DNA of 64,000 nt. It comes from a virus (lineage: Duplodnaviria > Caudoviricetes). The translations under genes were made by a program, and so were the position numbers. This document shows positions 1 through 27,096 of this stretch, one piece after another; position 1 is the first letter of the stretch; each line of letters starts with the position of its first letter. The notes under the pieces were generated by a model, which saw only the letters and a list, made by a program, of their open reading frames with translations, did not search any database and was not told the DNA's origin. The stretch spans positions 24,493 through 88,492 of IMG/VR virus record IMGVR_UViG_2721755344_000003; one strand, 5' to 3'.

Positions 1-66
1 ATAAATGTTCCTTCTTTAATATCACTTAAAGATTTGTCTGCATTTGATCCCATAGTATTTAATTAT

Positions 67-327
67 TTAGTTTAGAAACTTGATCTTCTTTATACATCCT
101 CTTGGAATGCCAATCATTGATATATATGTATTATCTTCTCCTATTGAAGATGCTATAGTCACAACTTTTTTATTTTTCATGATCAAAAATCCTTTTGTTA
201 CAATCCTGAATTCTTTAGAAGAGAATTTCTTTATACCATCAATACTTTTCCATTGACCGGAACTTACCGAATCTACCCAATGAACTTCAACAAACTTCTT
301 CTTATTTCTTATCTTTTTAAATCTCAT
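67..327 (-). CDS. Conserved small phage hypothetical protein
   Basis: 86 aa; V-x-W-x-D and IPxGCI pattern recurrent in phage small proteins; overlaps the adjacent gene by 4 nt. Confidence 0.7.
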   Translation of the reverse strand: MRFKKIRNKKKFVEVHWVDSVSSGQWKSIDGIKKFSSKEFRIVTKGFLIMKNKKVVTIASSIGEDNTYISMIGIPRGCIKKIKFLN

Positions 328-548
328 GCAAATCCCTTTCCTCCACGTTTACTTTTGTGATGTTTTGCCTTCCATACCCTGTAAGGATATTTCACATACC
401 TGAAAGTATCTTTCTTATCCTCTTCCAATAATGCCCTATAGGAGATGTCAGGAACTCTCTCGCTTACACTTTTCAGGTCGGTGAACGATTCCAGGTTCCA
501 TGTGTCGATATTCAACACTACATAAAAATATTCCCTGTCTCTGTTCAT
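324..548 (-). CDS. Hypothetical protein
   Basis: 74 aa; coupled to both neighbours by 4-nt ATGA overlaps. Confidence 0.65.
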   Translation of the reverse strand: MNRDREYFYVVLNIDTWNLESFTDLKSVSERVPDISYRALLEEDKKDTFRYVKYPYRVWKAKHHKSKRGGKGFA

Positions 549-787
549 AATCTTTCAATTTGTTTTAATCCAAACCATGCCATATAACCTGCATCATCAA
601 TCTCTAAACCATACTTCTGCATCCCCTGAGTTATCGTCCTCGTTTTTATAGTGGCATATTTGCCTACAAGATCCACACGAATATCATTTACCTCCATCTT
701 TGCACCAGGATAACTATCTATCTTCCATATCGGATGTCCTACCAATATCTTCACCCTTGCACCAATTCTGTACTTAAATCGTCCCAT
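545..787 (-). CDS. Hypothetical protein, possible SH3/KOW-like beta barrel
   Basis: 80 aa; YRIGARVKI ... LVGKYATI pattern; first gene leftward from the strand switch. Confidence 0.6.
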   Translation of the reverse strand: MGRFKYRIGARVKILVGHPIWKIDSYPGAKMEVNDIRVDLVGKYATIKTRTITQGMQKYGLEIDDAGYMAWFGLKQIERL

Positions 788-824
788 ATCTTAAAATCTA
801 TCACAGTAAAGTTGTATATAATAT

Positions 825-980
825 ACATTCTGTCAAAATATACTTATTAACAAAATGACATTCTATCATGAATTAGTTAATTGCGATAGAATGTATTTTT
901 TTTTGTCTAAACCCGTCTTTTTCGACACTAGAATGTCACTCCATTGTAAAATAATTATTACAACAAAATGACACTCTATC
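825..980. repeat. Five copies of an ACATTCT(A/G)TC-core motif in both orientations (operator- or iteron-like)
   Basis: 825-834 ACATTCTGTC; 851-867 CAAAATGACATTCTATC; 885-899 inverted; 929-938 inverted; 964-980 CAAAATGACACTCTATC (1 mismatch to 851-867). Confidence 0.75.
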
Positions 981-1043
981 GTATCTCATTATACCCAAAC
1001 CAACCAAAGACTATATTATTATCCCTTCCCTATCCATAAACAT

Positions 1044-1111
1044 CCCCTCCTGTATATACCCCCCCCGTATATATAGTGTGCCCCCCTATATACCCCCGGA
1101 TAATCACCCCC
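1044..1111 (-). other. C-tract cluster (G-quadruplex-capable on the minus strand) in the divergent intergenic region
   Basis: C4 1044-47, C8 1059-66, C6 1081-86, C5 1093-97, C5 1107-11, mostly separated by TATATA-containing spacers, in an AT-rich genome. Confidence 0.6.
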
Positions 1112-1146
1112 ATGTTTTACGGTAATCAAACTTTAAATTTTAATTT

Positions 1147-1473
1147 ATGAATTCACTGAGAGAAAAGAGTCCGCAGGGTGCAGACCCACGCAGGGACTTC
1201 GATGCTTGCCACATCATAAATGTGAGCAAAGCAAATCAGATCTCTACTAAAAACTGGGAATACCATACAGTGCAAACTGATGGTGCAAACAAGACTGAGA
1301 ACATTGGTGTTGGGTTACTCATGGTAGCTCACAACAAGTTCGGTAGCGTCCTGCTCACAACGAGCGGTAAAGCTGTACCGAAAGGAACAGCAAAGGAAGA
1401 CGTTGAATATCTTGTCAACAGCAAAGTCATGATTGGCAGGAAAGCAGGAGAGATCTATCTTCAGTCAGCTTAA
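1147..1473 (+). CDS. Hypothetical protein, first gene of the plus arm (monocistronic)
   Basis: 108 aa; visibly more GC/C-ending codons than neighbours; followed by its own terminator. Confidence 0.8.
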   Translation: MNSLREKSPQGADPRRDFDACHIINVSKANQISTKNWEYHTVQTDGANKTENIGVGLLMVAHNKFGSVLLTTSGKAVPKGTAKEDVEYLVNSKVMIGRKAGEIYLQSA

Positions 1474-1476
1474 AGG

Positions 1477-1499
1477 AAGGGGGGAAACCCCCTTTTTTT
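1477..1499 (+). terminator. Rho-independent terminator
   Basis: GGGGG-GAAA-CCCCC followed by T7 directly after the 1473 stop. Confidence 0.9.
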
Positions 1500-1816
1500 A
1501 AAACCCTTCCTGCAATATATATATCCAATATAATGATATAATATCAGGCTTGGATTGGCTTACAGAGCAGGATAGATCATGCATTCCTTCTGATTGGAAT
1601 GTGAGGATAATACAGATGGTGGAGTATTATAAGATATATAGAAAGAGTAAGGAGATAAGAATATGTATATCTTCGTTTCGATGAACATTAATAAGTAACT
1701 AAAGAAAGGAAGGATATATATGATGTGAGGTAATATAATCTTCGATAATTTAGCAACCATACTGTGATATGGAATAAGGCTACGATGATCTGGAAGGACC
1801 AGGGAGCAGTCTTGCT

Positions 1817-1908
1817 TAACTGTGAGAATCAGTGACAAACCTGTGGGGCTTATATCTCATCCGATTTAAGGCGGCAAGTGAGTATTAGTGCAGAGTATAA
1901 AATCAGGT
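1817..1908 (+). ncRNA. Hatchet self-cleaving ribozyme
   Basis: ACTG-TGAGAAT-CAGT (P1), GACAAACCTGTGGGGCTTATATCTCAT ... GTGAGTATTAGTGCAGAGTATAAAATCAGGT closely matches the hatchet core as I recall it. P2 ACCTG(1839-43)/CAGGT(1904-08) and P4 CTCAT(1856-60)/GTGAG(1878-82) show compensatory changes versus the reference ACAUG/CAUGU and CUAA/UUAG. Confidence 0.9.
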
Positions 1909-2028
1909 AGTCATCTTGTAGTAATGCATATGAATTGACTATAAATGACTTAAATAAGTCCTTACAAGCCAATGAAAGGCAAAACTCCTTATTAATCTTT
2001 GTATCTTTGATTATTAATAACTAACCAT

Positions 2029-2232
2029 ATGAAAAAGATTAGATTTTTATTCCTGGTATTCTCCAAGCCTATCATTAAATCCTGGATTCAATGGGGAGAA
2101 TTGAACTATTCTGTCAAAGTATTTGGTAAGATAATAATTGTGAGACAAAGAATAATCTTGGATAAAGTAATGTATATAATATATGCATCATTTGGTGATA
2201 ATCAAGATGTAGATCCTATTTATCTTTATTAA
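2029..2232 (+). CDS. Hypothetical protein
   Basis: 67 aa; AT-rich leader typical of SD-less Bacteroidota translation starts. Confidence 0.6.
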   Translation: MKKIRFLFLVFSKPIIKSWIQWGELNYSVKVFGKIIIVRQRIILDKVMYIIYASFGDNQDVDPIYLY

Positions 2233-2236
2233 ATAT

Positions 2237-2638
2237 ATGAAATTAATAATCACACTAAGTAGTGGATTAAGAGTCGGTAATTTCAGTTCACCTTATGCAT
2301 TTGAATTTGAAGATGGAACAATATTGCCTGCTATAGATGATATAACAGCGAAATTAGGCACATTAGATAGAGATGATGAAATAGTTCAAATTGGTAAGAT
2401 ATATTCGACTATACATCCTGTATTTAAGTTAAATAATATGATTGAGTTTGAATTGGATCAATGGATAAATGTATTTTTAGATGACAAAGTAGATATAGTG
2501 ATAGTTCCATTACCAGTATTACAAGCAATGCAATCAGATAAAGGATGGAAATCATCAATATTGAGTCTTCCATTCAGGACAATATATATTGTGGATAGGA
2601 TAAAGAAGATAATATCAATTAATAAATTCTGTATATGA
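2237..2638 (+). CDS. Conserved phage hypothetical protein
   Basis: 133 aa; LSSGLRVGNFSSPYAFEFEDGTILPA N-terminus resembles a recurrent Bacteroidota-phage family. Confidence 0.75.
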   Translation: MKLIITLSSGLRVGNFSSPYAFEFEDGTILPAIDDITAKLGTLDRDDEIVQIGKIYSTIHPVFKLNNMIEFELDQWINVFLDDKVDIVIVPLPVLQAMQSDKGWKSSILSLPFRTIYIVDRIKKIISINKFCI

Positions 2639-2871
2639 TATCTATTGAACTAACTAATAAGATTGAAGAACTAGTGATATTTACTAATTCGTTTAAAGAT
2701 CAGAATAATATGACTAAAGATGATCTTAATAAGAGTTATGACATGTTGGTAGATATAGAAGATTGTATGAGCAGAATCATATTTAAACCAACAGCAGTGT
2801 TTGAATTAATGGATATGCAACGTCAAATAATCGATATAAAGAATGACATATCTAAACTTTTAAATCAATGA
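2635..2871 (+). CDS. Hypothetical helical protein
   Basis: 78 aa; ATGA overlaps on both sides. Confidence 0.65.
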   Translation: MISIELTNKIEELVIFTNSFKDQNNMTKDDLNKSYDMLVDIEDCMSRIIFKPTAVFELMDMQRQIIDIKNDISKLLNQ

Positions 2872-3359
2872 AATATTCATCAAGTATTCTTTATTTTATA
2901 TGTTCATTTTTCATAACATCTTCTTTTACAGAAATATTAAAAGCACAAAACATAGTTTCTACCGCTGGAGATCACTTTAAAAATAATACAGCTCAGTTAA
3001 GCTGGACCGTCGGAGAGGTAACCATTGAAACTCTATCAGGCACCAGTAATATTCTTACTCAGGGATTTCACCAGACTAACTTAATAGCAACTGCTATCAA
3101 TGAAATACTTGATCTTGGTTTTGAAATTAAAGCCTATCCGAATCCTACTCAGGATTATCTGATCCTTAAAATATCAAAAGATAAACTTAATGGAATGCAG
3201 TACAAACTTTACGATATGCAAGGGAAATTATTGCATCATAAGTTGATTGAAGAAAGTGAAACAGAAATTTCTTTTAAAGATCTTGTCCCATCAACATATC
3301 TTATCAAAGTAATTGAAATGAATAAAGAACTTAAAACCTTCATGATAGTTAAACAATAA
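2868..3359 (+). CDS. T9SS type-A C-terminal sorting domain-containing secreted protein
   Basis: Signal peptide; IKAYPNPTQDYL ... YKLYDMQGKLL ... YLIKV ... KTFMIVKQ is the classic Por secretion CTD. Confidence 0.9.
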   Translation: MKYSSSILYFICSFFITSSFTEILKAQNIVSTAGDHFKNNTAQLSWTVGEVTIETLSGTSNILTQGFHQTNLIATAINEILDLGFEIKAYPNPTQDYLILKISKDKLNGMQYKLYDMQGKLLHHKLIEESETEISFKDLVPSTYLIKVIEMNKELKTFMIVKQ

Positions 3360-3371
3360 AAAAACAAAGCC

Positions 3372-4808
3372 ATGAGAAAGTTATACTCAATTTTGGTCGC
3401 ATTAATACTGTCTGTAACATTATTTGCACAGGCACCATCAAGTTTTAAATACCAGACAGTTGTTAGAAACTCTTCTGGACAGTTGATTACAAATACCCAG
3501 GTTACTATTCAAATAGCAATACTTAGAGGTAGTATCAGTGGTGATCCGGTTTATATTGAAACCTTCAGTCCGACAACAAATGATTTTGGTTTGGTGAACC
3601 TGAATATAGGTTCAGGAATAATGATCTTAGGTAATTTTGAAACTATTGATTGGGGAATTGATACTTATTTTATTAAAGTCTGGTTTAATAGTACAGAGAT
3701 GGGCACCAGTCAGTTATTAAGTGTCCCTTATGCATTATATGCAAACAAAGCAGAGACTCTATCGGAAAATGCTTTAACAGGAAATGAAAATGCTTTCATC
3801 GAATGGGATAAAAATATATTAGATGATTTTGATGGTAAATATAGCAGTCTTTCCAATATACCAACTTTTGCCAATATTGCAATAACAGGAGATTATAATG
3901 ATCTTGCTAATAAACCACTCTTATCCGATAGTGCCTGGGGATCATTACCACTAGGAAAAGCAGGACAGATATTAACCATAGATCAATTTGGTAAACCATT
4001 ATGGGTTACTCTTTCTGGAAAGCCAGATGCAACAACTCTGCCAGTGTCAAATATAAATGGTGGATTAACAACATTTAATTGCAATGTCAACCCAAATGGA
4101 CTTTTAACTTCAGTAATATTTGAATATGGTATTGACACTGGTTATGGTAAAGTAATATTGCCTACTCAGAATACTATCATTGGAAATTCAATTATTGCTT
4201 TAAGTGCTGATATAGGAAATTTAGCGGTAGGTACCACTTATCATTTCAGAGTAAAAGCCATAAATACATTTGGTACTTCGTATGGAGAAGATATGTATTT
4301 CACACCTTATTATTCTTTAGAATCAATTGCTATTGGACAATTCTATGCTGGTGGTGTAATATTCTATATTGATGAAACTGGACAACACGGATTAGTTTGT
4401 GCTTCAACTAATCAAAGTCAAGGAATACAATGGTATAATGGAGCCGATATTTTAACAGATGCTACTGATAAATTAATTGGAACTGGACAGCAAAATACAG
4501 CAAAAATAATTGCTATTCAAGGACCTGGAATTTATGCTGCAAGTCTTTGTGATCAATTAGAATTAAATGGCTTTAATGATTGGTTTATGCCTTCATATGA
4601 TGAACTTAAACAGATGTTTCTTAATAGGGCAATTATTGGAGGTTTTGAAATGTCATCATATCGTTGGTGGTATTGGAGTTCGACAGAAAAAGGTTTAACT
4701 TTAGCTAATATGTGGGATTTTAGTAGGGATAATCCAGATATGAATGGCGAAGCCTATGCAACAAAAAATGGTAGTGGAGCTGGTGTAAGAGCTATTCGTA
4801 CTTTTTAA
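3372..4808 (+). CDS. Secreted Bacteroidota-type protein with Fn3-like repeat and C-terminal DUF1566 (Lcl, C-type-lectin-like) domain
   Basis: Signal peptide + AQAPSSFKYQTVVRN; SVPYALYA motif; Fn3-like TTYHFRVKAINTFGTSYG; C-terminal DWFMPSYDEL ... YWSSTE ... VRAIRTF. Confidence 0.8.
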   Translation: MRKLYSILVALILSVTLFAQAPSSFKYQTVVRNSSGQLITNTQVTIQIAILRGSISGDPVYIETFSPTTNDFGLVNLNIGSGIMILGNFETIDWGIDTYFIKVWFNSTEMGTSQLLSVPYALYANKAETLSENALTGNENAFIEWDKNILDDFDGKYSSLSNIPTFANIAITGDYNDLANKPLLSDSAWGSLPLGKAGQILTIDQFGKPLWVTLSGKPDATTLPVSNINGGLTTFNCNVNPNGLLTSVIFEYGIDTGYGKVILPTQNTIIGNSIIALSADIGNLAVGTTYHFRVKAINTFGTSYGEDMYFTPYYSLESIAIGQFYAGGVIFYIDETGQHGLVCASTNQSQGIQWYNGADILTDATDKLIGTGQQNTAKIIAIQGPGIYAASLCDQLELNGFNDWFMPSYDELKQMFLNRAIIGGFEMSSYRWWYWSSTEKGLTLANMWDFSRDNPDMNGEAYATKNGSGAGVRAIRTF

Positions 4809-4859
4809 ATTGTTAAAATGAATTTATTCGTTTGACAATAAACTATTAAATTAAACATT

Positions 4860-5144
4860 ATGACATTTCATCTTAAGGGGGAAATAAAAACTGGTAGAGT
4901 CTGGTTAAGATATAAAGAATTGTATCCTGGAGAAAGTCAAAGATTAATAAATCATTCGCCAGATGGTTTTAATTGGGGGTATGGTGGATCAGGACCAGCA
5001 CAATTAGCATTAGCTATATGCCTTGAATTGTTTGATAGAAAGAAAGCATTGAAAGTATATCAAGTGCTTAAATGGAGACATATTGCTACATTACCACAGA
5101 CAGATTTTGAACGGGATATTACCATAGATCAATATCTTTTATGA
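4860..5144 (+). CDS. DUF6166-like phage protein
   Basis: NHSPDGFNWGYGGSGPAQLALA signature. Confidence 0.8.
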   Translation: MTFHLKGEIKTGRVWLRYKELYPGESQRLINHSPDGFNWGYGGSGPAQLALAICLELFDRKKALKVYQVLKWRHIATLPQTDFERDITIDQYLL

Positions 5145-5698
5145 AAAAAGATAGGCTTGATATTGCTCATGTTATATATGAATGGTGGAAAACCAAACAG
5201 AATAAAAAAGATTATCTCGATGCCACAATAACAGTAGAACAATTTTTAAGTATAAAAACAATAAGTGAAGATATAGAATTTATAGAAGAAGGCACACGAA
5301 TATTCATAAAACACAGAAATAAACCAGATGAGATTATATATAAAGGAATCGAAGCGGTTAAAGAAATCAGAGCAGCTTTGTCTTCGTGCAGTACATGTAA
5401 TTATGAAATATACGTCAGATTTAATGAAGGAGGAGAAAAGAAACAAGAAGAAGATTGGTATTGGAACAGAGATTGCATGTGTCTTAATATTGATTGTTCA
5501 AATCATTTTAATAATATTGTAAAGAACAGAACAACCAGAGAACCAATACAACCAGTATATGAATGTCCATATTGGAAACAAAGGATAAAGGAGTTATTAA
5601 CAGATTATGAACAGACTACAACAGTTATTACGACAGGCAAAAGAATTAAAAAGAAAAGGGGAAAATACAAAAGATATTCAAAACCAAATTATGGATGA
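5141..5698 (+). CDS. Hypothetical protein with Cys cluster
   Basis: 185 aa; CSTC, CMC-x4-C and CPYW motifs. Confidence 0.7.
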   Translation: MKKDRLDIAHVIYEWWKTKQNKKDYLDATITVEQFLSIKTISEDIEFIEEGTRIFIKHRNKPDEIIYKGIEAVKEIRAALSSCSTCNYEIYVRFNEGGEKKQEEDWYWNRDCMCLNIDCSNHFNNIVKNRTTREPIQPVYECPYWKQRIKELLTDYEQTTTVITTGKRIKKKRGKYKRYSKPNYG

Positions 5699-5730
5699 AT
5701 TTATATTAGATAAAGAAAATTATATAACCT

Positions 5731-6168
5731 ATGAAGAAAAACATCGTCGTATGCATTCTAATGATTCTGGCAGGGATCGTTAATGCACAGAAACCACAAA
5801 TCAAATTACCTGAATGGGAAACAACAGGAACTGTTATAGGACCACCAGAGAATGCCATATTAGGTACATTTGAAGAAGTATTAGAAAAAGTCATGAAATT
5901 AACAGGTATGGACACTATGTATATTCTCACAGATCAACCTGGTTTATATATTCCAGATTATTCCATGACTATCAGACAAACTGTCTATATATATATTCCA
6001 AGTAATGACAATAGACAGTCTCCTGGTTATTCTAATAATGGTTATGATCCTACTCATGGAAGATATGAGAATAGGTATTATAATGCAAATCCGGGCTTAT
6101 TAATGCCCTTGCCAGCACCACCACCATTGCCAAGATCTGTACCATGGTATTATATAAGAAAGCGGTGA
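5731..6168 (+). CDS. Secreted hypothetical protein with Pro-rich C-terminus
   Basis: MKKNIVVCILMILAGIVNAQ signal peptide; PLPAPPPLP tail. Confidence 0.7.
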   Translation: MKKNIVVCILMILAGIVNAQKPQIKLPEWETTGTVIGPPENAILGTFEEVLEKVMKLTGMDTMYILTDQPGLYIPDYSMTIRQTVYIYIPSNDNRQSPGYSNNGYDPTHGRYENRYYNANPGLLMPLPAPPPLPRSVPWYYIRKR

Positions 6169-6323
6169 GGCCGAAGTCTTAAACAGCCGTAACAGTTACC
6201 ATGTCATAAGACCGACTGGACTGACAGAGAAAGAGAGAAACATGGCGATTATCTGTCAGATACACGGAGGCTGATAATCCTCAGATGCAGGATATGGCCT
6301 ATGAGGACCGCTTTCTTTTTTTT
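6156..6323 (+). ncRNA. Candidate structured RNA of unknown class
   Basis: 11-bp closing stem AAGAAAGCGGT(6156-66)/ACCGCTTTCTT(6307-17); nested GGCC/GGCC, CAGCC/GGCTG, CTGACAGA(6221-28)/TCTGTCAG(6252-59), ATCCT/AGGAT; ends in a U-tract. Confidence 0.6.
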
Positions 6324-6344
6324 AATATCAACGATCTCTTTAAG

Positions 6345-6423
6345 GCGGGGTAATGGCATAATACAATTCTTTTCTGGTTAGTTTAGGATTGTATAAAAAG
6401 GTTCGAATCCTTTTCCCTGCTCA
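6345..6423 (+). tRNA. Degenerate tRNA-like element (no D-stem, extended anticodon-position stem, no encoded CCA)
   Basis: Acceptor GCGGGG/CCCTGC with a G3-U70 pair; T-arm AAAGG-TTCGAAT-CCTTT; 10-bp stem ATACAATTCT/AGGATTGTAT; anticodon not assignable. Confidence 0.5.
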
Positions 6424-6460
6424 AAGTAAAAGACAAAGTTATTTTTTAATACTAGTCAAT

Positions 6461-6640
6461 ATGATACTAATAATATCAACATTTTGTTTATGGTTATTGG
6501 GAGGAGTAGGCATCAGTTTATCATTAAATAGAAAAAAAGATCCTAGATGGTTGAGGATGTTATATGCTATCATAGGTATAGGTCTATGTGCAGAAGCAGG
6601 ATATATTCTTAGCATAATCTTTTTTAAACAATTAGAATAA
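6461..6640 (+). CDS. Small two-TM membrane protein
   Basis: ATG at 6461 preferred over the TTG at 6389, which lies inside the tRNA-like element; two hydrophobic helices. Confidence 0.65.
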   Translation: MILIISTFCLWLLGGVGISLSLNRKKDPRWLRMLYAIIGIGLCAEAGYILSIIFFKQLE

Positions 6641-6939
6641 TGAAAACAATTTGGAAATATAAATTATCTCTTGATAATTCTAATGATATTAGTGTTCCTT
6701 ATGCTTCTCAAAATATTAGAATACCTATTAGATCAGTAATTCTTGATGTTCAAGAACAAAGAGGTATTCCTTGCCTTTGGGCTTTAGTAGAAGATACTAA
6801 TAAGATTGTTGAAAGACATATAAGAATATATGGAACAGGTCATAAAATAGACCAGTTCGATCAACATGTTTATATAGGAACATTTCAATTTCATGATTAT
6901 GGCTTAGTTTTTCATGTTTTTGAATTTATTGATAAATAA
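6640..6939 (+). CDS. Conserved phage protein (DUF7352-like)
   Basis: MKTIWKY ... VQEQ ... LWALV ... IYGTGH ... YIGTFQ ... LVFHVFE pattern. Confidence 0.75.
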   Translation: MKTIWKYKLSLDNSNDISVPYASQNIRIPIRSVILDVQEQRGIPCLWALVEDTNKIVERHIRIYGTGHKIDQFDQHVYIGTFQFHDYGLVFHVFEFIDK

Positions 6940-6944
6940 GAATA

Positions 6945-7256
6945 ATGAAATCATTTTGCTTTAAGACAACAACAGCAGGTGGCGATCCTGCCAAAATAAT
7001 AATTACTAACTATGATGACTGTGTTAATAATAATATTATCATTATTACCAAACGTATTCTCACAAAAGATTACAGAATAGCAAAACGGTGCAAAATGCAT
7101 ATATTAAGAAAAATAGGTGACAAATATTATGTGGAAAGTAGGTTTTCATTAAAATTAGAAACGTTGCTGAATATTATACATGGATTAATAATAACAGAAG
7201 ATGCAAGAATATCTATTAAAAATCATAAAGGCAACAAAAGGATTCAAAAAAGGTAA
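6945..7256 (+). CDS. Hypothetical protein
   Basis: 103 aa in a co-directional cluster. Confidence 0.6.
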   Translation: MKSFCFKTTTAGGDPAKIIITNYDDCVNNNIIIITKRILTKDYRIAKRCKMHILRKIGDKYYVESRFSLKLETLLNIIHGLIITEDARISIKNHKGNKRIQKR

Positions 7257-7404
7257 ACAGTTTATTGGATTCGAAAGATTATCTGTATTGCCTAATCATT
7301 ATATTACAATTAATGAAGATAATATAGAAAAGACAATACCAAAGAAAAATTGTAAAGTATTAGCTACATCTATAGTTAAAAGAGAAAAAAATAATATCTT
7401 ATGA
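7201..7404 (+). CDS. Hypothetical protein
   Basis: 67 aa; coupled to the next gene. Confidence 0.55.
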   Translation: MQEYLLKIIKATKGFKKGKQFIGFERLSVLPNHYITINEDNIEKTIPKKNCKVLATSIVKREKNNIL

Positions 7405-7670
7405 ATTTATCGAAAAGAAATAAAGATGCTACTATATACATTGCAGAGCATCAAGAACAAAAGATCCAAAAGACCATGATATATGGATGGGATCCAATAA
7501 GAAAAGAAGCTTGGAGAATACTCATAAATGGAAGAATAGTAGATATGCGATCTACAAGACCATATAATACAACATCTATCATAGGACCATGTACGCTGGT
7601 TAAGGAATTGGAACCATTTTGTGTATCAGATGAACATCTTGATGCTATTAAAAATGAGAAACCATTTTAA
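7401..7670 (+). CDS. Hypothetical protein
   Basis: 89 aa; ATGA overlap with the previous gene. Confidence 0.65.
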   Translation: MNLSKRNKDATIYIAEHQEQKIQKTMIYGWDPIRKEAWRILINGRIVDMRSTRPYNTTSIIGPCTLVKELEPFCVSDEHLDAIKNEKPF

Positions 7671-7679
7671 TATATAGTT

Positions 7680-7916
7680 ATGGGAACAACACAACGTAAT
7701 GCAGGAAAACAAGAATTCAATCCACCTGAGATGGTAAGAAAACCTGTAGATGAATTATTAATGGCATGGGCAAGTGCTAGGATGTATTTTGGCAGATCTC
7801 AGAAAGGAATTAAAAGTACTAAAAGTAATGATATGCTTAATCTACTGCATAAGAAAGAAAGAAGGAGAAAAGAAAGAATAAAAAAATTATCTCGGAGAAT
7901 GAATCGTGGACGCTGA
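7680..7916 (+). CDS. Basic hypothetical protein
   Basis: 78 aa; C-terminal RRRKERIKKLSRRMNR. Confidence 0.65.
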   Translation: MGTTQRNAGKQEFNPPEMVRKPVDELLMAWASARMYFGRSQKGIKSTKSNDMLNLLHKKERRRKERIKKLSRRMNRGR

Positions 7917-8147
7917 TCGTTTCTTTTTACGCTTATATAATGAATCTGGAGGCATATAAAGAGAGAAGTGTTTATCAATATAGATATTATAATTTTTGAA
8001 CATTGCAATGCATATATTGCGTGTAACAAAAGATATTGTAGATCCTATCATTCGATTTGTCAATAATTTAAATATAGGATTTTTCTTCACTAATTGTTTC
8101 TTCACGGCTCGTACATAATCATTATTACACTTTAAATCAAACAACAT
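7887..8147 (-). CDS. Possible HU/IHF-like small DNA-binding protein (lone antisense gene)
   Basis: Fills a 230-nt plus-strand gap; RMIGSTISFVTRNICIAMFKN-YNIYIDKHFSLY parallels HU helix 2 + beta strands; basic tail. Confidence 0.4.
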   Translation of the reverse strand: MLFDLKCNNDYVRAVKKQLVKKNPIFKLLTNRMIGSTISFVTRNICIAMFKNYNIYIDKHFSLYMPPDSLYKRKKKRSASTIHSPR

Positions 8148-26572: not shown

Positions 26573-26854
26573 ATGATACGAATAATAAATAATCATAAGG
26601 ATATAGACTGCAGAATAGTAACATCCGGTTGTCCTTATCTTAATATAGGATCCCAAACAATGACAGAGAGAATAAAGGTTATTACCTGTCTGGCATTGAA
26701 TATAATTCTACCATTTAAACAAAAGAGAGTACATGGATGTATCAATACAGAAATAGAGATTATAGAAACTCCATGGGAATGTCCTATACTCGAACAAAGA
26801 AGGAAAGAAGGAACAGAACCCAAAGTGATGATGTCTATTATACCAATAAAATGA
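26573..26854 (+). CDS. Hypothetical protein with Cys residues
   Basis: 93 aa; AT-rich leader. Confidence 0.6.
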   Translation: MIRIINNHKDIDCRIVTSGCPYLNIGSQTMTERIKVITCLALNIILPFKQKRVHGCINTEIEIIETPWECPILEQRRKEGTEPKVMMSIIPIK

Positions 26855-27096
26855 CATTCTATTCTTCATTACCACCTAATACACGCCTTGGAAAGATCTC
26901 AGACTTCATAGAAATAGGTCCGGACTATCCTAACTACTACAAAGTAAAAATAGGAATGAAATATATTCTATTCTCACCAGAACGTCCTGACGGAACAAAA
27001 GAAGACAGATGGTATGAACAAGAAATTACAGAAGTAACCACCTCAGATAATCTAGATCCCTGGATTAAAGAAGGAAGGTTATTTGTGTTTGTTTGA
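26851..27096 (+). CDS. Hypothetical protein (last plus-strand gene)
   Basis: ATG at 26851 gives an ATGA overlap with the previous stop; 81 aa. Confidence 0.65.
   Translation: MTFYSSLPPNTRLGKISDFIEIGPDYPNYYKVKIGMKYILFSPERPDGTKEDRWYEQEITEVTTSDNLDPWIKEGRLFVFV

Follow-up and report, generated by a model that had tools for sequence, protein, structure and literature searches.

What does a self-cleaving RNA do when it lies between a terminator and the first gene of a long phage gene block? The question is raised by a stretch of viral DNA of 64,000 nucleotides (hereafter the window), which comprises bases 24493–88492 of an 88,492-bp virus record that carries direct terminal repeats and is rated 100% complete. 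A first-pass annotation of the window had proposed a hatchet ribozyme near its left end, at the head of an early gene block of a crAss-like phage. Hatchets (RF02678; Weinberg et al. 2015; Li et al. 2015, PMC4604424; product crystal structure, PMC6561176) cleave in a Mg2+-dependent reaction in which the 2′-oxygen of nucleotide −1 attacks, yielding a 2′,3′-cyclic phosphate and a 5′-OH (PMC4604424). Here we establish the identity of the element, map its anatomy and surroundings, compare it with hatchets in other viral genomes and weigh the functions that these data suggest.

A hatchet ribozyme at the junction of two gene blocks

A cmscan search of the whole window matched the Rfam Hatchet model RF02678 at 1813–1908 on the plus strand with 76.4 bits, against a gathering score of 51, and an E value of 5.6e-14. 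The match is full-length (model positions 1–133 of 133) and begins 4 nt 5′ of 1817, the first P1 base, at which the original call had started. It is the sole Rfam match at or above the gathering score in the 88.5-kb phage genome, and was again the sole match when 1–8000 was searched at E ≤ 1. The Rfam search of the window and of the remainder of the genome found no other ribozymes or RAGATH RNAs, and a search of 14 control genomes with RF02678 gave 0 matches. Sequence 1813–1908 is a genuine hatchet ribozyme, as first proposed, and a further example of a known RNA class in a type of virus already known for that class. Because its conserved positions are intact, the window copy is probably active as a ribozyme.

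Architecture, covariation and the predicted cut site

The minimum-free-energy fold of the isolated 96 nt reproduced all of P1, P2, P3 and P4. The P1 hairpin (1817–1835, plus strand), which is common to the Rfam match, the fold and the alignment, pairs 1817–1822 with 1830–1835 around a 7-nt loop, UGAGAAU; five of its pairs are standard, and the second, adjoining U1–A19, is an A1818·G1834 mismatch at a position also unpaired in 2 of 14 other aligned hatchets. The 5′ strand of P2 (1839–1843) makes five out of five standard pairs with 1904–1908 and is followed by the conserved U28 G29 G30 G31 (1844–1847), invariant in an alignment of 15 hatchets. P3 (1847–1891) joins 1847–1850 to 1887–1889 and 1891, with an additional A1852–U1885 pair, and encloses P4, which pairs 1856–1860 with 1878–1882 beneath an apical part at 1861–1877. 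The 3′ portion (1890–1908) consists of G63 C64 A65 G66 (1890–1893), a linker, A73–A75 (1900–1902) and the 3′ strand of P2 (1904–1908).

With U1 placed at 1817, window numbering agrees with that of the crystal structure, the 5′ half being numbered identically to the crystallised construct. The conserved segments C20–A22, U28–G31, G63–G66 and A73–A75 (PMC6561176) thereby correspond to 1836–1838, 1844–1847, 1890–1893 and 1900–1902, and G31, the likely general base (PMC6561176), to 1847.

Covariation was scored over 21 pairs in an alignment of the window copy with 14 other hatchets. Standard pairs occupied 98.1% of cells and changes on both sides were found in 11 of the 21 pairs; none of 500 shuffles scored as high, and sliding the partners out of register left 27–39% paired. 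At all invariant columns, the residue of the window copy is the shared one. P3 was invariant, three of the five P2 pairs covaried and all five P4 pairs varied on both sides across the family, with the window P2 bearing A–U and C–G where the commonest pairs are G–C and A–U. The compensatory changes that the first-pass annotation had seen in P2 and P4 are thus borne out by pair counts across 15 hatchets.

Because P1 is formed by 1817–1822 and 1830–1835, with CAA next at 1836–1838, we assign U1 to 1817 and predict the scissile bond, by homology to the crystal structure, between U(−1) at 1816 and U1 at 1817 on the plus strand. In that structure, U1 is the 5′-OH product nucleotide and the first paired base of P1; it pairs with A19 and stacks on C20–G30 (PMC6561176). 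The cut previously predicted around 1816/1817 agrees with this arrangement, a U1–A19 pair followed by C20 A21 A22. The −1 base is U in the window and U or C in the other collected hatchets whose P1 has six positions; in vitro, a hatchet carrying C(−1)U cleaves as the wild type does (PMC6561176).

About 90% of hatchets also have a P0 hairpin, placed a few nucleotides 5′ of the cut and dispensable for catalysis (PMC4604424). In the window, minimum-free-energy prediction gives a candidate P0-like hairpin at 1775–1814 on the plus strand, with a basal stem of 1775–1781 and 1808–1814 and an apical stem of 1789–1793 and 1799–1803; it ends 2 nt before the predicted cut, and its energy is unremarkable (−10.8 kcal/mol, z = −0.7 versus shuffles). 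The window copy shares with its class, in which P1 has three or six base pairs, helices P1–P4, six positions in P1, the UGAGAAU loop, the core nucleotides, the −1 pyrimidine and a predicted cut at the 5′ base of P1, but differs in the A·G at the second P1 pair, a G at −3 where U is usual, a short P4 and a weak candidate P0 that lacks the apical motif of many copies.

That apical motif, GU(C/U)(U/C)GUGA(AGA or GAA)UAG, was found in 23 of 54 hatchets and in 10 of 35 distinct upstream contexts (upstream of the hatchets in loci L032, L033, L116, L118, L119, L121–L125 and others). It folds as a short bulged stem capped by a GUGA tetraloop and ends 11–25 nt before the cut, on lower stems that differ in sequence; a few more copies lie elsewhere in those genomes, not beside a hatchet, and the window has none. 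The hatchet P0 was described in 2015 as being without sequence conservation (PMC4604424).

Affinities and gene layout of the phage

Of the 57 records matched by the capsid protein in tblastn, the best 15 were all either capsid genes of Crassvirales or phage contigs from human faeces that lack annotation, and within these 15 the identity to Crassvirales was 22–25%, with a best E of 9e-22. PHROG matches identified the portal (phrog_6547), capsid (phrog_11589) and terminase (phrog_6681). A 6369-aa ORF contains a single DFDxD motif (DFDID at residue 3929), a hallmark of crAss-like virion RNA polymerases (bioRxiv 10.1101/2020.03.07.982082); the region around DFDID had no PHROG match, and the motif together with the size of the ORF marks it as a putative virion RNA polymerase. 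By these sequence affinities the phage is distantly crAss-like, and the crAss-like label given at first sight survives with that qualification of distance.

The gene map consists of a long leftward block that continues across the record's ends and a rightward block of ~25 kb (2029 to about 27096) that carries replication genes and encodes a DnaB-type helicase; the hatchet sits at the divergent junction of the two. The protein encoded at 2868–3359, downstream of the hatchet, scored 39.6 bits (cut-off 27) for Por_Secre_tail, the C-terminal sorting domain of the type IX secretion system (T9SS), in line with the T9SS cassette that the first-pass annotation had placed in the block, and the 478-aa protein at 3372–4808 has a weak Lcl_C (DUF1566) match. 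Sorting-domain and DUF1566 proteins fit a Bacteroidota host, and the host is probably in that phylum, as judged from these genes. The DUF1566/Lcl_C-type protein at 3372–4808 has thousands of homologues, mostly on metagenome contigs, and the pair 2868–3359 and 3372–4808 recurs on another metagenome contig.

From the strand switch to the first gene of the block

The strand switch lies at 787/788 and is followed by repeats, by a tract of C-rich runs and TATATA, and then by a lone 108-aa ORF (1147–1473, plus strand), the first rightward gene after the switch, whose product had no Pfam or PHROG match. Just past it is an intrinsic terminator (1480–1499, plus strand) composed of a G-rich stem, an AAA loop, a C-rich stem and a run of 7 T; the extended hairpin has an energy of −20 kcal/mol. 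A program-made terminator list gave this hairpin on the minus strand only, the plus-strand call being read from the sequence. Because this strong terminator splits the hatchet from the upstream gene, RNA containing the ribozyme would likely come from a start within 1500–1812 or from read-through.

The 313 nt between terminator and ribozyme (1500–1812, plus strand) would, wholly or partly, constitute the 5′ cleavage fragment. This stretch has no credible ORF, no Rfam match at E ≤ 1 and an unexceptional fold energy (z = −0.63). On the other side, a 120-nt leader (1909–2028, plus strand), its fold z-score likewise unremarkable, separates the ribozyme from the first ORF of the rightward block (67 aa; 2029–2232, plus strand), with no terminator-like site between the hatchet and ATG 2029. 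The whole non-coding spacer, from the stop of the 108-aa gene to ORF 2029, spans 555 nt, in which the hatchet lies 317 nt past the terminator and the predicted cut 343 nt past the preceding stop codon. Encoded in the sense orientation and immediately 5′ of the first ORF, with no terminator-like site intervening, the hatchet keeps its description as heading a long gene block.

In BLAST comparisons of window 1400–2300 with all fetched hatchet loci, similarity was confined to 1810–1914. The similarity covers the ribozyme span, from the cut site to the 3′ end of P2, so the conserved unit is the ribozyme itself. A Logan contig from run SRR4030043 covers window 1382–2762 and is 100% identical, thus offering no natural variation.

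A promoter search that covered exact k-mer repeats, the motif found at 850 and 963, a 31-nt repeat, TAnnTTTG and TGnTATAAT returned nothing enriched or convincing. TAnnTTTG, the Bacteroidota-type −7 box, occurs once in the spacer, at 2002–2009 and hence 3′ of the ribozyme; it is not enriched in intergenic DNA of the phage genome, and if used as a promoter would give a block mRNA without the ribozyme. An extended −10 sequence, TGnTATAAT, lies at 1534–1542, and this motif is not enriched in intergenic DNA either. Early transcripts made by the virion polymerase of phage phi14:2 have no detectable common upstream motif (bioRxiv 10.1101/2020.03.07.982082).

Three repeat features of the junction were recorded alongside this search. 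At 1043–1112, C-rich runs alternate with TATATA in three to four copies of the unit TATATACCCCC, ending 35 nt before ATG 1147; the tract, unusual for a genome of ~33% G+C, may serve as a promoter or as a structural element of the DNA. When up to 3 mismatches are allowed, the motif ACAAAATGACAYTCTATC has four copies (850–867, 963–980, 885–902 on the minus strand, and 26846–26863), where chance would give 0.36; the divergent junction has three of them and the fourth lies close to the convergent end of the rightward block, and the motif could be an operator or polymerase site. Finally, 1669–1699 and 1995–2025 form a 31-nt direct repeat, 77% identical, with the second copy stopping 3 nt short of ATG 2029; no significant recurrence of the shared half was seen elsewhere in the window.

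Hatchets in other viral genomes

Viral contigs were scanned with two patterns and the Rfam model was then run on whole records, which gave 58 further hatchets in 28 records of 50–175 kb (crAss size), with 1–3 per record; the records of other sizes that were picked up by the loose pattern held no true hatchet. According to a 2026 preprint, hatchets are largely confined to Crassvirales. In the 28 crAss-size records, the neighbouring ORF was on the hatchet's strand in 49 of 53 cases upstream and 48 of 52 downstream. In these other hatchets the median distance from the upstream stop codon to the cut is 71 nt, and often 27–75 nt separate the two, while the median distance from the ribozyme's end to the next ATG is 264 nt; where a divergent strand switch is visible, they lie ~2–6 kb into the block of small genes that starts there. 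Co-orientation, a cut a median 71 nt past a stop codon and a position in the first few kilobases after a divergent switch point to the formation of a transcript boundary. Against these medians of 71 and 264 nt, the window hatchet is placed atypically, at 343 nt from the stop codon and 120 nt from the ATG.

By BLAST, the 5′ half of the hatchet was found in 12 deposited phage records, all from human faeces (nine named ‘uncultured phage crNN_1’ and three ‘Bacteriophage sp.’ contigs that carry no annotation). One group of records is 92–93% identical in DNA to cr53_1 and cr115_1 over about half to two thirds of a 3.5-kb query, and cr115_1 (NC_055898) belongs to the genus Birpovirus of the Suoliviridae. 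The window copy resembles the hatchets of human-gut Crassvirales in being co-oriented with its genes, in lying in a spacer of a small-gene block by a divergent switch and in belonging to a crAss-size genome. It differs from them in number and company, since those genomes have 1–3 hatchets, set in the Birpovirus-like group amid RAGATH-6, -7 and -9, tRNA-Leu and a permuted tmRNA, and the phage of the window has one hatchet and no other Rfam RNA in its genome; in its cut, 343 nt past the stop codon and behind a terminator rather than typically 27–75 nt; in being the first element of its block; and in a capsid that is only 22–25% identical.

Several further observations were made in the collected loci. 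Birpovirus-like loci L049, L050 and L059 contain a dense island of non-coding RNAs on one strand over ~7 kb just past the strand switch, consisting of RAGATH-6, RAGATH-7, two or three hatchets, tRNA-Leu(UAA), RAGATH-9 and a permuted tmRNA. Some deposited Crassvirales hatchets lie under coding sequences annotated ‘homing endonuclease’ or ‘hypothetical protein’ (NC_055869, 29285–29331; NC_055873, 33549–33595; NC_055894, 35459–35497); the hatchets in these records carry no ribozyme annotation, and some of the ORF calls there are possibly spurious. Perfect 7–8-nt complements of the P3/P4 3′ strand occur 220–290 nt downstream of the ribozyme in L126 and L121 (AGTGCAG) and in L017, L025 and L114 (GTATTAGT); in the window, whose leader is only 120 nt, there was no downstream complement of that strand beyond chance. 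In the 174-kb hatchet-bearing phage L141, two tandem tRNAs with CUA anticodons, called tRNA-Pyl by ARAGORN, at 3169–3319 suggest that TAG is recoded.

The nearest relative found has the junction layout but not the ribozyme

Megablast of window 1–8000 against deposited phages gave no match. A search of viral contigs for close relatives gave no match with the helicase or the capsid and only short domain matches with the 478-aa protein. This last protein was rejected as a synteny marker: its homologues are DUF1566 surface-type proteins, mostly on metagenome contigs, the two named ones from Cloacimonadota and Bacteroidales metagenome-assembled genomes. Homologues of the helicase led instead to a 92-kb relative, in which the helicase is 28% identical and the replication block syntenic, and to a 13.6-kb contig; across the regions read, both were free of hatchets and of other Rfam RNAs.

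At its own junction the 92-kb relative has a lone rightward gene, a strong terminator (L150, about 6460–6505), 1.27 kb without called genes and then the block. Its lone gene encodes 146 aa and is unrelated to the 108-aa gene of the window. In this relative, the synteny that the first-pass annotation had named as a check on its proposal was seen for the junction layout, and the hatchet is absent. As the nearest relative found has the layout without the hatchet, the layout is older than the ribozyme, which is not required for it; the layout is the conserved feature, rather than the lone gene or the ribozyme.

The cut as a proposed transcript boundary

We think it reasonably likely, if well short of certain, that the genuine hatchet on the sense strand sets a transcript boundary, uncoupling the mRNA of the rightward block from upstream RNA. 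Rightward transcription of the spacer would yield an RNA that folds into P1–P4 and cleaves its own chain at U1816/U1817. Of the two products, the upstream one, at most ~317 nt long if transcription starts past the terminator, would end in a 2′,3′-cyclic phosphate just behind the P0-like hairpin. The downstream RNA would begin with a 5′-OH at U1817 and continue through the compact 92-nt ribozyme fold and the 120-nt leader into ORF 2029 and beyond. Cleavage would thereby detach the block mRNA from leader sequence or from RNA that had read through the terminator, leaving it with a structured, phosphate-free 5′ end at a fixed position. We infer the co-transcription of hatchet and block, together with any effect on stability or translation, and protection from 5′-monophosphate-dependent decay would be a reasonable consequence of the putative 5′-OH end.

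Co-orientation with the downstream genes, here and across the 28 other genomes, speaks for the boundary reading, as do the full-length Rfam match, the covarying structure, the restriction of similarity to the ribozyme itself, the terminator at 1480–1499 and the lack of a terminator-like site in 1909–2028; the A·G mismatch in P1, the weak P0, the atypical position, the promoter motifs without enrichment, the sole TAnnTTTG box lying 3′ of the ribozyme and the absence from the nearest relative found speak against it. Ribozymes are familiar as transcript insulators from HDV-like ribozymes and RiboJ-type parts; the analogy is functional only, as fold and catalytic residues are unrelated. As in HDV-like ribozymes, the hatchet cut at the 5′ edge would leave an upstream RNA without ribozyme sequence and a downstream RNA that keeps a folded, cap-like structure with a 5′-OH.

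Because a hatchet cuts at its own 5′ edge, the upstream RNA would be freed without ribozyme sequence, its cyclic phosphate behind the P0 hairpin, and the main product might then be the 3′ end of that RNA. It would be either a discrete non-coding RNA of 1500–1816 or read-through from the 108-aa gene, with the block perhaps served by its own promoter in 1909–2028. We regard this as possible although doubtful for the window. It gains from the other crAss-like genomes, where the cut comes soon after a co-oriented stop codon with P0 between and the next start codon is distant, and from the retention of a P0 that catalysis does not need; the positional rule in those genomes favours a 3′-end role for the class. 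Phage phi14:2 adds to this, in that long intergenic stretches of its early region give abundant early non-coding RNAs (bioRxiv 10.1101/2020.03.07.982082). The window likewise has a long non-coding spacer among its first rightward genes, but phi14:2 has no hatchet, and transcription of the window spacer is putative. The TAnnTTTG box past the ribozyme would suit a separate promoter for the block, but it is a single match of a non-enriched motif; the upstream gene, moreover, already has a strong terminator, and 1500–1816, with its unexceptional fold, has no Rfam match and no conservation in the other loci. Both readings could hold together, because a single cut creates the two ends.

In another version of events, which we rate as unlikely, the hatchet would serve in this lineage to mature a leader RNA made early. 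The injected virion polymerase would start just past 1499, and the cut would release a discrete non-coding RNA of ~270–317 nt with a cyclic-phosphate end, comparable to the abundant early RNAs of phi14:2, together with an operon mRNA that is free of a 5′-phosphate and escapes 5′-end-dependent decay.

Patchy as its distribution is, it is distinctly improbable that the ribozyme is carried along as a dispensable passenger, a selfish or newly acquired RNA module whose cleavage has no selected role. It is missing from the nearest relative found, which has the same succession of gene, terminator and spacer, and from crAss001 and phi14:2, the crAss-like phages with published transcriptomes. Likeness to other phages covers the ribozyme only, and the 5′ half is 95–97% identical to the hatchets of very different gut crAss-like phages with capsids at 22–25% identity, which hints at horizontal spread. 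However, no core position and none of the four stems is disrupted, and the stems show compensatory changes, so that the hatchet is under purifying selection; orientation and neighbourhood are consistent across 28 genomes. Least credible by far is a chance resemblance without any ribozyme at 1813–1908: the 96 nt do fold no more stably than shuffles (z = +0.40), but this is expected because of the large internal loops, low fold energy not being a property of open ribozyme cores, and the E value across the full model, the clean control genomes, the complete set of conserved nucleotides and the covarying stems all argue against it.

Discussion

The ribozyme extends its class to a crAss-like lineage that is far from the human-gut genomes of the deposited examples, and the survey yields a testable positional rule for the class: co-orientation with the genes, a cut soon after a stop codon and nearness to a strand switch. 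The window also presents an unusually simple case, in which a single copy is shielded by a terminator from the upstream gene and immediately precedes the opening ORF of a long block; a dead-ribozyme mutant or end-mapping would thus be easily read. [quoted passage not shown]
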